From the NCBI RefSeq assembly GCF_003334385.1, contig NZ_QOWN01000007.1: a stretch of 64,000 bases of DNA, one strand, 5' to 3'. The notes beneath the pieces were generated by a model. The model searched no databases, was not told where the DNA came from, and saw only the letters and a list, made by a program, of their open reading frames with translations. How positions within the stretch are numbered: the first letter of the stretch is position 1; each line of letters starts with the position of its first letter. Shown piece by piece: positions 27,484-30,817 of this stretch. Source of the stretch: Escherichia coli. Its GTDB lineage: Bacteria > Pseudomonadota > Gammaproteobacteria > Enterobacterales > Enterobacteriaceae. A program made the translations under genes and the position numbers.

Positions 27484-27629
27484 CATTACCCTAACGGACG
27501 AAATAATTTTAAGTCGCCATAGTTTAGCGATAATCGCCATGAATGCTATAGGATAAATGATAAAAATAATGAATTATTACAAAGGGAACATAAGAGAATC
27601 AGGGCGAAAATCGCCCTGATAACATGATG

Positions 27630-27738
27630 TTAGTCGCTGCCAAAAAGATCGCGGGTGTAGACTTTGTCTGCCACATCCTTAAGCTCTTCTGCCATACGGT
27701 TGGAAATAATGACGTCGGCTTGTTGTTTGAAGGTGGTC
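27630..27738 (-). pseudogene. Remnant of ugd 3' end (about 36 C-terminal codons) left beside wzzB
   Basis: Reverse strand encodes ...[33 protein letters not shown], paralogous to the C-terminus of the intact ugd at 29651-29760; no upstream ORF. Confidence 0.8.
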
Positions 27739-27908
27739 TAATAGTCAGCTTGGAACAGCTTTGATTGTAAAATGAGCACGTTACCAGAAAAAACAGCCAG
27801 GTTTAGAACTGATACCGATTATCTTTTTTTCTTGTCTAACGGTATGATTTAACTTTCAGTTATGCCAGATGAAGATTGGCTATATTCTAGCCTGAGCGAG
27901 GATTATAA

Positions 27909-28913
27909 ATGAAATTTCTGGTTACGGGAGCTGCTGGCTTTATCGGTTTCTATGTAAGTAAACAGCTTCTTGCAGCTGGTCATCAGGTTGTAGGCATTGA
28001 CAACTTAAATGATTATTACGATGTCAACCTCAAACAAGCACGACTTGATTTACTCAAGCACGACAATTTCAGTTTTTATAAAATTGACCTGGCCGATCGC
28101 GAGATAATGGCGGCACTGTTTGCAGACGAGCGGTTCGATCGCGTAATAAACCTCGCTGCGCAAGCCGGTGTACGTTACTCCCTTGAAAATCCCAATGCAT
28201 ATGCAGATGCAAACCTGATTGGATTCCTGAACATACTGGAAGGATGTCGCCATAATAATGTTCGGCATCTACTTTACGCTTCCTCCAGTTCTGTTTATGG
28301 CATGAACCGCAAGATGCCTTTCTCTACAGATGACTCTGTAGATCATCCTGTTTCGCTGTATGCAGCAACTAAAAAGGCGAATGAACTCATGGCCCATACG
28401 TATTCTCATTTGTATGGCTTACCGACCACAGGGCTGCGTTTCTTTACGGTTTATGGTCCATGGGGACGTCCAGATATGGCATTATTTAAATTCACTAAAG
28501 CCATGCTGGAAGGTAAAAGCATTGATGTTTACAACTTCGGCAAAATGAAGCGTGACTTTACTTATATTGATGATATTGCCGAAGCTATTATTCGCTTACA
28601 GGATGTTATTCCAGAAAAAGATCCACAGTGGGCTGTAGAAACAGGCTCGCCAGCAACAAGTTCAGCACCATATCGTGTCTATAACATTGGTAATAGTTCG
28701 CCTGTGGAGTTAATGGATTATATCAATGCCTTAGAAGAGGCTCTGGGTATTGAAGCCAACAAGAATATGATGCCTCTCCAACCCGGTGATGTACTGGAAA
28801 CCAGTGCTGATACAAAAGCACTGTATGACGTAATAGGATTCAAACCTGAAACGTCAGTTAAAGAGGGGGTAAAGAACTTTGTAGAATGGTATCGTAACTT
28901 CTATAAAGTTTGA
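27909..28913 (+). CDS. NAD-dependent UDP-glucuronate 4-epimerase-like protein (SDR family)
   Basis: 334 aa; GAAGFIGF Rossmann motif, YAATK catalytic motif, [15 protein letters not shown] region resembling UDP-GlcA 4-epimerases. Confidence 0.75.
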
Positions 28914-28935
28914 TTTTATAAAACCATAATAAATA

Positions 28936-28959
28936 TCCTCCGGCATAGCCGGAGGTTTT
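28936..28959 (+). terminator. Hairpin plus T-tract downstream of the epimerase gene (terminator, or part of the IS200 right end)
   Basis: cctccggc-ata-gccggagg followed by TTTTT. Confidence 0.5.
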
Positions 28960-29036
28960 TCAAATGCGCCTATAAGGCTCTCTTACCAGCCGCGCCCTAA
29001 CAGGCGCACACGATCTGACATTTGCATCCAACTTCG

Positions 29037-29495
29037 TTACTTACGGCCCGTAAACGGGCTGCCCGGATAGGGAATCGATAACTGCTCTCCCATTTTATCC
29101 TCTTCAAGCTGGTGCTTTATGTAATCCTGTATCTTCGCCGTGTTCTTACCCACCGTATCGACGTAGTACCCTCTGCACCAGAACTCCCTGTTCCTGTATT
29201 TGAATTTCAAATCACCAAACTGCTCGTAAAGCATCAGACTGCTTTTCTCTTTCAGATATCCCATAAAGCCGGATACGCTCATTTTGGGCGGGATCTCCAC
29301 AAGCATATGGATATGATCTGCACAGCATTCAGCTTCAAGAATCCGTACGCTTTTCCACTCACACAGCTTTCTCAAAATACAGCCTATTGCTCTACGCTTC
29401 TCTCTGTAGAACACTTGTCTTCGGTATTTTGGCGCAAAAACTATGTGATATTTACAGTTCCATCGGGTGTGCGCTAAGCTCTTTTCGTTCCCCAT
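29037..29495 (-). CDS. tnpA: IS200-type transposase TnpA (HUH Y1 transposase)
   Basis: 152 aa from MGNEKSLAHTRWNCKYHIVFAPKYRR; contains HxH (HIHMLV) motif. Confidence 0.85.
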   Translation of the reverse strand: MGNEKSLAHTRWNCKYHIVFAPKYRRQVFYREKRRAIGCILRKLCEWKSVRILEAECCADHIHMLVEIPPKMSVSGFMGYLKEKSSLMLYEQFGDLKFKYRNREFWCRGYYVDTVGKNTAKIQDYIKHQLEEDKMGEQLSIPYPGSPFTGRK

Positions 29496-29650
29496 TGGGA
29501 CCCCCTTTTGATTTCTTGTTTGACACTTGCAGTTGCCAGACCGCAAGGTGTTTTAACAAATCAAAAGGGGTTATAATAACTGGCTCAAAGCTGAAAGCTT
29601 TCCGGAACCCCCAGCCTAGCTGGGGGTTTTCTTAGTATGAAACAAAATAA

Positions 29651-30817
29651 TTAATCATTGCCAAACAAGTCGCGCGTATAAACCTTATCTGCTACATCAG
29701 CCAGATCGGCAGACATACGGTTAGAAATAATAACATCAGCTTCTTGTTTGAACGCATCCAGATCACGTACCACGCGCGAACGGAAAAAATCGACCTCTTT
29801 CATCGCTGGCTCATAAACGATTACTGGCACACCTTTAGCCTTGATTCGCTTCATAATACCCTGAATCGAGGAAGCACGGAAATTGTCTGAACCACTCTTC
29901 ATAATCAAACGATAGACGCCAACAACTTTCGGTTTACGTGCAAGGATAGAATCGGCAATAAAATCTTTGCGCGTGCGGTTGGCGTCAACAATTGCCGAGA
30001 TCAGGTTATTCGGCACAGACTGGTAATTTGCCAGTAACTGCTTAGTATCTTTCGGCAGACAATAACCACCATAACCGAATGACGGGTTGTTGTAGTGATT
30101 ACCGATACGCGGGTCAAGGCATACGCCCTCAATAATCTGGCGTGAATTAAGCCCCAGGCTTTCAGCATAACTATCAAGTTCATTGAAATACGCTACACGC
30201 ATCGCCAGATAGGTGTTGGCAAAAAGTTTAATCGCCTCAGCCTCGGTTGAGTCAGTAAACAATGTTGGTATGTCTTGCTTAATAGCGCCTTCCTGTAATA
30301 ACGCTGCAAAACGTTCTGCGCGGTCGGATTGCTCGCCAATCACAATGCGTGATGGGTGTAAGTTATCATAAAGTGCTTTACCTTCACGCAAAAACTCAGG
30401 CGAAAAGATCACATTTTCAATACCAAACCGTTCTTTAATGGACTCTGTAAAACCAACAGGGATAGTTGATTTTATAATCATTACAGCATTGGGATTAATT
30501 TCTGTCACATCGCGAATGACCGCTTCCACGCTTGAGGTATTAAAATAATTTGTTTTCGGATCATAATCGGTAGGTGTGGCAATAATAACGTAATCGGCAT
30601 TTTTATACGCGTCATACTTATCTGTCGTAGCGCGGAAATTGAGATCTTTAGTCGCCAGATACTCTTCAATCTCCTTATCAACAATCGGTGACTGCTTCTT
30701 GTTAAGCATGTTCACTTTGGCCTGAACGATATCCAGTGCAACCACTTCGTGATTTTGCGCAATCAGAATACCATTTGAAAGACCAACATAACCTGTTCCT
30801 GAAATTGTTATTTTCAT
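29651..30817 (-). CDS. ugd: UDP-glucose 6-dehydrogenase Ugd
   Basis: 388 aa from [16 protein letters not shown]. Confidence 0.95.

Follow-up and report, generated by a model that had tools for sequence, protein, structure and literature searches.

At the boundary between the his region and the O-antigen cluster of an Escherichia coli strain of serogroup O48, which is covered by the analysed window of 64,000 nucleotides, the interval between wzzB and gnd carries the scar of a genetic exchange: behind a short 3′ remnant of the resident ugd come a gene for a gla/uge-type UDP-glucuronate 4-epimerase, an IS200C element, and an intact ugd of a different allele. The reading that best accounts for this arrangement, with a probability of about 0.85, is a single old import of a gla-ugd block, one end of which was joined illegitimately within the resident ugd, followed by spread of the new haplotype, decay of the remnant and a late insertion of IS200C. 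The original prediction of a recombination or insertion scar at this boundary is thus supported; however, the event does not appear to be a simple insertion of an epimerase gene, but rather the replacement of the resident ugd by a foreign ugd-gla block. The locus as a whole is real, but it represents ordinary mosaicism of the O-antigen region.

The first gene of the interval, wzzB, codes for an O-antigen chain-length regulator of the resident E. coli type (26506-27483, minus strand; coordinates from the PGAP annotation of the near-identical VE-T2 locus) and scores 604.8 bits against NF012015, with a cut-off of 267. It is followed by the resident 146-bp wzzB-ugd intergenic spacer (27484-27629), which is collinear with its counterpart in gla-less E. 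coli, their identity reaching 99.2-99.6%; since wzzB lies on the minus strand, this gap is upstream of its start codon, and not downstream of the gene as had been described. Still attached to this normal spacer is the orphan remnant of the resident ugd, a pseudogene on the minus strand recognized by translation and by alignment to gla-less ugd; the fragment of about 109 bp that had been proposed at 27630-27738 was confirmed, with its end placed two bases earlier, at 27736, where the alignment stops. In the remnant (27630-27736), the stop codon of a ugd typical of E. coli is preserved along with the 34 codons and 2 nt before it, and translation of 27630-27740 yields a 35-residue product. When a 422-bp query spanning the junction was compared with gla-less E. 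coli, 250 bases, corresponding to spacer and remnant, aligned with up to 99.2% identity (E 1e-123), a match to ugd that, judged from the alignment, is far beyond chance; identity runs from the wzzB start codon to 27736 and ends there abruptly. In VE-T2, PGAP annotates the equivalent of 27630-27734 as a pseudogene (“hypothetical protein; missing N-terminus”), and the pseudogene status of the remnant is already present in RefSeq; no paper describing the ugd stub was found in the literature searched.

Beyond the remnant, a segment of 172 bp on the plus strand (27737-27908) leads to gla; it is present in all gla-positive loci aligned and has no counterpart in gla-less E. coli. The junction between remnant and segment falls at the same position, within a base, in nine of nine aligned gla-positive loci, among them A37 and CD09, the pair with the greatest divergence. 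The roughly 100 bp next to gla (27811-27908) are conserved across genera in one continuous alignment that runs into the gene, with about 75-77% identity overall, as would be expected of the native upstream region of gla, brought along from the donor; for 27737-27810, no match was found in the other Enterobacteriaceae compared. A sigma-70 consensus scan upstream of gla found no promoter. A check for a compositional break at the junction had also been proposed, but the GC and skew profile across it exhibited no sharp or usable change; this check is uninformative, because both ugd alleles and gla have a GC content of about 40-43%.

The gene at 27909-28913 (plus strand) is intact and codes for a product of 334 amino acids, in agreement with the predicted SDR-family epimerase on the strand opposite to the two ugd copies. 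The product matches PDB 5u4q, which we take to be a Klebsiella pneumoniae protein, over its full length (E 3e-190); the next-best matches are the chains of 6zl6, presumably the UDP-GlcA 4-epimerase of Bacillus cereus (E 6e-44), and both structures rank above WbgU/WbpP and GalE, while the scores against the NCBIfam equivalogs for GalE, RmlB and TviC are far below their cut-offs. Full-length alignments to SDR epimerase structures indicate an extended-SDR fold of about 330 residues. The NAD-binding motif GxxGxxG is found as GAAGFIG at residues 7-13, and the YxxxK of the catalytic Ser/Thr-Tyr-Lys triad as Y151-A-A-T-K155, which, together with the S126-S128 run, aligns to the corresponding motifs of 5u4q and 6zl6; moreover, both JGI and NCBI give the name UDP-glucuronate 4-epimerase to homologues of 86-87% identity. 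By sequence, then, the protein can be regarded as closely homologous to UDP-glucuronate 4-epimerases of the gla/uge type, with a predicted activity converting UDP-GlcA to UDP-GalA. The O48 O antigen presumably contains GalA, and gla probably supplies UDP-GalA for O units with galacturonic acid. The same 334-aa gene is located between ugd and wzz in E. coli LL004, which has a GalA-containing O unit; in that description it was termed gne, and gla was stated to lie elsewhere (PMC8657804). The comparisons above suggest that the 334-aa gene between ugd and wzzB should be annotated as a gla-type UDP-glucuronate 4-epimerase, and not as gne as labelled there.

The complete ugd that had been recognized at 29651-30817 (minus strand) codes for 388 amino acids and scores 793 bits against NF011631, with a cut-off of 757, over positions 1-388 of 388. 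At the nucleotide level this gla-linked allele has 75.3% identity with the ugd of gla-less E. coli and 76-79% with those of Citrobacter, Enterobacter and Phytobacter; both E. coli alleles are about equally far from the other genera. The next gene is gnd (31066-32472, minus strand, identified as an ORF and annotated by PGAP as gndA), which is 84-86% identical to its counterparts in other genera at the nucleotide level, compared with 75-79% for ugd and gla.

The distribution of these elements was surveyed in 5,426 complete E. coli genomes. At an identity of at least 95%, gla was found in about 279 of them, the 422-bp junction query was covered for at least 80% in 272, and the gla-linked ugd allele was present at 90% identity or more in 278, all other matching genomes being below 90%; each count comes from its own search, so that these figures are totals rather than sets matched genome by genome. 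Relatives free of the insert are the rule, since in about 95% of the genomes wzzB lies directly beside ugd. The gla-positive loci adjoin at least four different O-cluster neighbours, and a comparison of the window with VE-T2 revealed 92 mismatches in 24405-27133 and only 2 in 27134-32700; because the mismatches stop at 27133, a recombination endpoint is placed within wzzB. These observations suggest that the haplotype has spread by homologous recombination. A second gla allele also occurs in E. coli (W150 type), and no ugd stub was found in its wzz-gla spacer. One match, in strain IH5, was left out, as the stretch consists wholly of incomplete gene fragments and was taken as a scrambled assembly.

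A history that would produce this arrangement starts from a gla-less E. coli chromosome with the order hisIE, wzzB, ugd, gnd and O-antigen cluster, into which a single old lateral transfer from another enterobacterial lineage would have brought gla together with the convergent ugd of the donor. Homology, located in gnd or further along, would have guided integration at the O-antigen end of the block; at the his end, an illegitimate join would have fused the wzz-gla spacer of the donor, some 172 bp ahead of gla, with the resident ugd 35 codons before its end. Such a join would have deleted the first 1,060 bp or so of the resident gene, whereas the final 107 bp, the terminator behind them and the promoter region of wzzB would have been kept. 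The haplotype made of remnant, gla and foreign ugd would then have moved among E. coli backgrounds together with O-antigen clusters, and much later, in the O48 haplotype only, IS200C would have inserted between the convergent gla and ugd, leaving both genes intact. Spacer and remnant of the A37/CD09 type are only 86.5% identical to those of the window type, while gla is 96.9% identical; a single origin thus needs either a later allele replacement, through a recombination ending in the short remnant, or fast neutral divergence.

The order his-(wzz)-gla-ugd-gnd is found in representatives of Citrobacter, Enterobacter and Phytobacter, and in the nearest metagenomic relatives; gla is convergent with ugd in the window and in five other genera, including Klebsiella, in which ugd is followed by the convergent glaKP/uge (PMC3101168). 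No ugd remnant was found in the wzz-gla spacers of the loci inspected in other genera. A search of genome contigs returned a best Gla identity of 87% at the amino acid level among the matches listed (Citrobacter, Phytobacter, Enterobacter), and in a collection of 5.8 billion proteins identity forms a plateau at 85-88% across many genera; in this collection the nearest Gla outside E. coli does not exceed 89%, and nothing was found between this value and the E. coli cluster. The two nearest Gla clusters come from genomes at a Citrobacter-like distance, and their spacers have no match to 27737-27810.

These data leave some room for a different beginning, in which wzzB-gla-ugd was ancestral in Escherichia, most E. 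coli lost gla through ugd allele replacement, and the gla-positive haplotype was re-introduced from an Escherichia lineage that had retained it. The gene order shared with the other genera would fit this account, as would the nearly even distance of E. coli Gla from all of them (85-89%) with no near-identical donor, and the similar distance of the two ugd alleles; indeed, an even Gla distance is also expected of an old gla lineage native to Escherichia, and for this reason the donor may have been another Escherichia lineage and not a foreign genus. Such a beginning is nevertheless considered unlikely: no Escherichia genome having gla and lacking the remnant was present among the matches listed, and the same scar-forming step would still be required, because the remnant indicates that the extant gla-positive haplotype was built on a gla-less chromosome, so that the two accounts differ only in the identity of the donor.

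In other strains, the remnant carries lesions: a 17-bp deletion extends across the junction in four of the nine aligned loci, and a 1-nt frameshift is present in CD09; because of these lesions, the remnant appears to be non-functional and decaying neutrally. It would be very unlikely, then, that it has been kept for a function, whether within the promoter or leader of wzzB, as an insulator bearing a terminator, or as a small ORF or RNA. In favour of a function could be counted the hairpin of the old ugd terminator at 27598-27620 (-20 kcal/mol, z -4.3), found also by the terminator scan, which like the 146-bp spacer is well conserved upstream of wzzB, and a 46-aa ORF running antisense across the remnant (27624-27764); however, the conserved part is the normal upstream region of wzzB in all E. 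coli, whereas the coding part is broken in the five loci just mentioned and meets an in-frame stop at the junction, and neither a start codon (by translation), nor a promoter (by promoter scan), nor a matching RNA family (by Rfam scan) was detected for the remnant.

A local duplication of ugd, for instance around an inserted gla, with decay of one copy to the 107-bp stub, could also account for the two ugd-derived sequences, which share their orientation and are separated by 1.9 kb. The alleles argue strongly against it. The remnant, which ends in FGSD, shares only about 75% identity with the corresponding part of the adjacent intact gene, which ends in FGND, but 99.2% with ugd from other strains of E. 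coli; the two sequences, which had been predicted to be different alleles, thus have different origins. Besides, none of the loci examined contained an intermediate in which the second copy is longer, and a local duplication is therefore regarded as highly improbable compared with the import of a gla-ugd block.

The IS200-family element predicted between the two ugd copies was identified as an IS200C insertion on the minus strand (28930-29632), with a left boundary uncertain by 2 nt (28928 or 28930). Its tnpA (29037-29495, minus strand), named IS200C family transposase by PGAP, codes for a Y1 (HUH) transposase (NF033573, 143.5 bits with a cut-off of 55, E 3.9e-42); the 5′-UTR RNA STnc490 (RF01405) is located at 29505-29628 on the minus strand, where it is matched over its full length (1-124) and scores 144 bits, the gathering score being 56, and the Rfam scan found no other RNA family. 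The element shares its length of about 703 bp with a second IS200C copy elsewhere, to which it is 99.1% identical over 705 bp; terminal hairpins are found at 28937-28955 and at about 29612-29626, and the flanks, CCATAA and TAGTATG, contain no target-site duplication. In gla-positive loci free of the element, its site is occupied by a 32-nt palindromic terminator that folds at -23.9 kcal/mol on either strand; of this bidirectional terminator, shared by gla and ugd, at least 25 nt are missing in the O48 haplotype, and the terminal hairpins of IS200C now occupy its place. Transposase, length, hairpins, absence of a duplication and STnc490 are all as known for IS200, a member of the IS200/IS605 family; the element is thus ordinary, its sole oddity being the lost bases of the terminator palindrome.

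At the gla/ugd site, IS200C was found in four genomes only, which are exactly the four O48 genomes; because of this restriction it appears to be a recent arrival unrelated to the import, so that the element, although present as predicted, would not be part of the original mosaic. That IS200 itself caused the rearrangement, by delivering gla or by truncating ugd, can practically be dismissed: the element does lie inside the mosaic interval, and IS debris is found near other gla-positive or second-allele loci, but about 268 of the 272 junction-sharing genomes lack IS200C, which is present at the site in the O48 haplotype alone, lies across gla from the junction at a distance of 1.2 kb, and belongs to the IS200/IS605 elements, which move as single strands and are not known to carry such passenger genes.

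With the import of a gla-ugd block as the preferred history, the locus offers a clean and datable case of rebuilding of an O-antigen flank, in which the arrival of an accessory sugar-nucleotide gene, accompanied by a ugd of its own, left a stub of the previous ugd. It involves no new mechanism and no new class of element; however, typing may make use of the stub, the deletion of 17 bp and the IS200C copy specific to O48 as simple lineage markers, and serogroups with galacturonic acid are worth checking for the gla-ugd pair. It is conceivable, and proposed here only tentatively, that a portable “GalA-supply cassette”, formed by gla and its own ugd, arose in one founding event, of which the remnant is the mark, and has since been exchanged among E. 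coli lineages together with GalA-containing O-antigen clusters; the 250 bp of spacer and stub, and wzzB, would have served as a recurrent recombination anchor on the his side. If so, the remnant allele, the presence of the 17-bp deletion and the junction type would become markers for the order in which GalA-containing serogroups arose, and the statement in the literature that gla “always maps elsewhere” would need correction.

The proposed join resembles homology-facilitated illegitimate recombination, in which one homologous anchor is combined with one illegitimate join and which is known from natural transformation in other bacteria. Here, too, a conserved flank that may have served as an anchor, gnd, is combined with an abrupt non-homologous join that truncates the resident gene; the difference is that in the present case the mechanism is deduced from its product alone. 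As for the gene itself, gla of the window is similar to glaKP/uge of K. pneumoniae, which is also a 334-aa extended-SDR epimerase arranged tail-to-tail with ugd (PMC3101168). [quoted passage not shown] A review of the O-antigen clusters of E. coli, Shigella and Salmonella (Liu et al. 2020, PMC7685785) counted 68 anomalies in 178 serogroups, of which 9 contain gene remnants and 23 mobile elements, and read them as relatively recent genetic events; the genes for UDP-GalA were placed elsewhere on the chromosome. Unlike those anomalies, the present remnant is located between wzzB and gla and not within the galF-gnd cluster proper; in their nature, however, this scar and its insertion sequence are of exactly the same kind (PMC7685785).

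The region of the window considered here is a part of the E. coli chromosome that runs from the his operon to the O-antigen gene cluster, which the annotation of wzx and wzy, to the right of the ugd region, assigns to the O48 family; between 27400 and 29700 it is 100% identical to the strains VE-T2 and VE-T10. The gene order, based on the ORF listing, family models and the RefSeq annotation of a near-identical locus, is hisIE (25798-26409, + strand), wzzB (26506-27483, - strand), an SDR epimerase gene, gla (27909-28913, + strand), an intact ugd (29651-30817, - strand) and gnd (31066-32472, - strand), with an IS200C element (about 28930-29632, left boundary uncertain by 2 nt, - strand; tnpA at 29037-29495), recognised from ORFs, family models and RefSeq, between gla and ugd. 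The original prediction placed a 3′ ugd fragment beside wzzB, at 27630-27738, and an epimerase gene on the opposite strand together with an IS200 element between the two ugd copies; both of the latter are indeed seen at the locus. The ugd-like stub, on the - strand between wzzB and gla, is confirmed by translation, by genome search, by three-way alignment and by RefSeq, which already labels it a pseudogene without N-terminus. Its start stands, but its end has to be moved: in the three-way alignment the ugd similarity stops at window base 27736, so that the stub occupies 27630-27736 and is 2 bases shorter than first estimated. It comprises the final 34 codons and the stop of a ugd, with an in-frame stop just upstream, and is still attached to the ordinary 146-bp wzzB-ugd spacer, terminator hairpin included. 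Aligned with the corresponding end of the intact ugd 1.9 kb further on, it is clearly a distinct allele, as had been claimed.

A collection of 5,426 complete E. coli genomes was searched with a 422-bp junction query, whose two ends lie just beyond the wzzB start codon and at the start of the epimerase gene. The whole query was covered in 272 genomes; in more than 4,000 others the match was restricted to query bases 1-250, with up to 99.2% identity, and corresponded to the 3′-terminal part of an intact ugd and its spacer to wzzB. Two separate searches of the same collection found the epimerase gene (at least 95% identity) in 279 genomes and the adjacent ugd allele (at least 90%) in 278, all other matching genomes being below 90%. 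Grouped by identity to the window allele, the E. coli ugd genes form at least three classes: at least 90% (n = 278), 80-90% (n = 671) and 60-80% (n = 3,035). In every gla+ locus fetched, the stub is accompanied by a ugd annotated as intact, and the C-terminal FGND ending was present in all three gla+ ugd genes translated (window, O113 and A37). In gla-less E. coli, namely LR-64-1, an ST131 strain and a K-12-like strain, wzzB is directly beside ugd. Insert-free relatives thus make up about 95% of the species sample, and the interval with the insert is not the universal ancestral state.

The epimerase has a GxxGxxG motif and, as catalytic pair, Y151 and K155 of YxxxK; its full-length match to PDB 5u4q (E 3e-190) is followed by the 6zl6 set, which we take to be the Bacillus cereus UDP-glucuronate 4-epimerase, while its scores with the GalE, RmlB and TviC models are far under the cut-offs. 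Homologues with 86-87% identity carry the JGI and NCBI name UDP-glucuronate 4-epimerase. From these comparisons it is concluded to be a gla/uge-type enzyme, predicted to convert the UDP-GlcA produced by Ugd to UDP-GalA; the O113 and O48 antigens presumably contain GalA. In E. coli LL004, whose O unit contains GalA, the same 334-aa gene lies between ugd and wzz and is labelled gne (Table 3, orf11), and its authors state that gla is invariably located at another site (PMC8657804); in a major review, too, the UDP-GalA genes are listed as elsewhere (PMC7685785). The gne label of LL004 orf11 is probably a mis-annotation of gla. In E. coli WG5::PA2 (L087 759-5323, in the locus's own coordinates) an IS3 element interrupts wzzB and an inserted ISSen4 cuts gla short, so that both O-antigen accessory genes are inactivated.

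The gla-linked ugd has 75.3% DNA identity with the ugd of a gla-less E. coli and 76-79% with those of Citrobacter, Enterobacter and Phytobacter; the gla-less E. coli gene is no closer than those of other genera, so that the event not only added the epimerase but also replaced ugd. Representatives of Citrobacter and Enterobacter (two species each) and of Phytobacter have the order hisIE-(wzzB)-epimerase-ugd-gnd, with no ugd stub in their wzz-epimerase spacers. In a collection of 5.8 billion proteins, the nearest non-E. coli Gla proteins are at most 89% identical, and below them an 85-88% plateau extends across many enterobacterial genera; the genomes hosting the two nearest clusters have his genes only 73-79% identical to those of E. 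coli, and share this gene order, again without a stub. The roughly 100 bp that precede the gla start (27811-27908) also match other genera, in one continuous hit with gla (about 75-77% over the whole hit), and include ...CTAACGGTAT(G/C)ATTT...; bases 27737-27810 gave no match in the relatives' loci. The conserved stretch is probably a gla promoter or leader; a sigma-70 scan of the gla upstream region detected no consensus promoter. The donor may belong to a foreign genus or to an unsampled old lineage of Escherichia; the latter would change only the donor's name, leaving the scar-forming step unaltered.

The wzzB-to-epimerase interval was aligned in nine gla+ loci from diverse backgrounds (O48, O113, LR-48, JNEC-KY177, WG5::PA2, CV839-06, LH50-c, A37 and CD09), and the ugd-derived sequence has the same end point, to within a base, in all nine. 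A 17-bp deletion spans the stub/spacer junction in four of them (L003, L087, L088, L089), and the CD09 stub (L092 2224-2324) has a 1-nt deletion, flagged as a frameshift by RefSeq. The stub thus behaves as neutrally decaying DNA, and a function for it is unlikely given these lesions, which are usable as lineage markers inside the gla+ haplotype. The spacer-plus-stub sequence is not of a single allele: that of A37 and CD09 is 86.5% identical to that of the window (gla, 96.9%). This difference, the weakest point of a single origin, is read as the result of a later exchange of alleles, or of rapid neutral divergence, on the his side. In 14 E. coli genomes there is a second gla allele, unrelated to the first, with 75% DNA identity to the window gla; this allele is 82% identical to that of Enterobacter cloacae, and its linked ugd 87%. 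In E. coli W150 (L085 1320-6223) IS600/IS30 fragments lie between wzzB and this gla, and a ugd stub was looked for beside this allele and not found. It represents an independent acquisition of the same function, indicating that the same kind of acquisition happened more than once.

The IS200C of the window is 99.1% identical to a copy at another site in another genome; its TnpA scores above the family cut-off, hairpins are present at each end, and STnc490, an Hfq-binding RNA derived from the IS200 tnpA 5′ UTR, has a full-length Rfam match (144 bits) at 29505-29628 on the - strand. Its ends were defined from the copy of JNEC-KY177 (L003 3001-3705), a gla+ genome where IS200C lies between hisIE and wzzB and no IS separates gla and ugd. 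All IS-free gla+ loci have, between the convergent gla and ugd, a 32-nt perfect palindrome, the bidirectional terminator GAAAAGGCCCTAATTTATTAGGGCCTTTTC (4527-4558 in locus L002), which folds equally well on both strands (-23.9 kcal/mol). The window, at 28924-28935 and 29627-29640, lacks at least 25 nt of it and has IS200C in their place, a loss unexpected for a simple IS200-type insertion; a + strand hairpin (28937-28955) followed by a T-run lies right after gla, and both gla and ugd are intact. The only genomes of the collection with IS200C between gla and ugd are its four O48 genomes, and the window's strain is none of these. This distribution contradicts, and excludes, an IS-mediated origin of the stub: IS200C is a late, lineage-specific addition without part in its formation. 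In-place duplication of ugd is also excluded, the stub being 75% identical to the neighbouring ugd and 99% to the ugd of other strains.

We infer instead that the block arrived by homology-facilitated illegitimate recombination, a mechanism that leaves this pattern of one homologous side and one non-homologous join. A fragment reaching from the O-cluster side across gnd, ugd and gla to about 172 bp of spacer upstream of gla would have entered a gla-less E. coli. Its right side would have recombined by homology (84-86% identity of gnd even across genera); its left side would have been joined non-homologously within the resident ugd, at 35 codons from the stop codon, with loss of the rest of that gene. 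The original reading of a recombination or insertion scar at the boundary of the O-antigen region is supported, by the match of the fragment to ugd and by the insert-free majority. Subsequent spread by ordinary homologous recombination can be seen directly: compared with VE-T2, the window has 92 mismatches in 24405-27133 (the his genes and two-thirds of wzzB at its 3′ end) and only 2 in 27134-32700, which places a recombination endpoint inside wzzB and indicates that the 5′ part of wzzB, stub, gla, IS200C, ugd, gnd and the start of the O48 cluster moved as one piece. At least four different O-cluster neighbours are found beside gla+ loci.

No paper describing this particular stub was found in the literature searched, and the example has a modest value for annotation correction and lineage marking. 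A gla/uge gene beside ugd is textbook in Klebsiella, where the ugd/glaKP pair is likewise tail-to-tail (PMC3101168). Gene remnants and IS elements are recognised “anomalies” of O-antigen loci, read as traces of past transfers (PMC7685785), and the stub is a new, well-documented example of this known kind.
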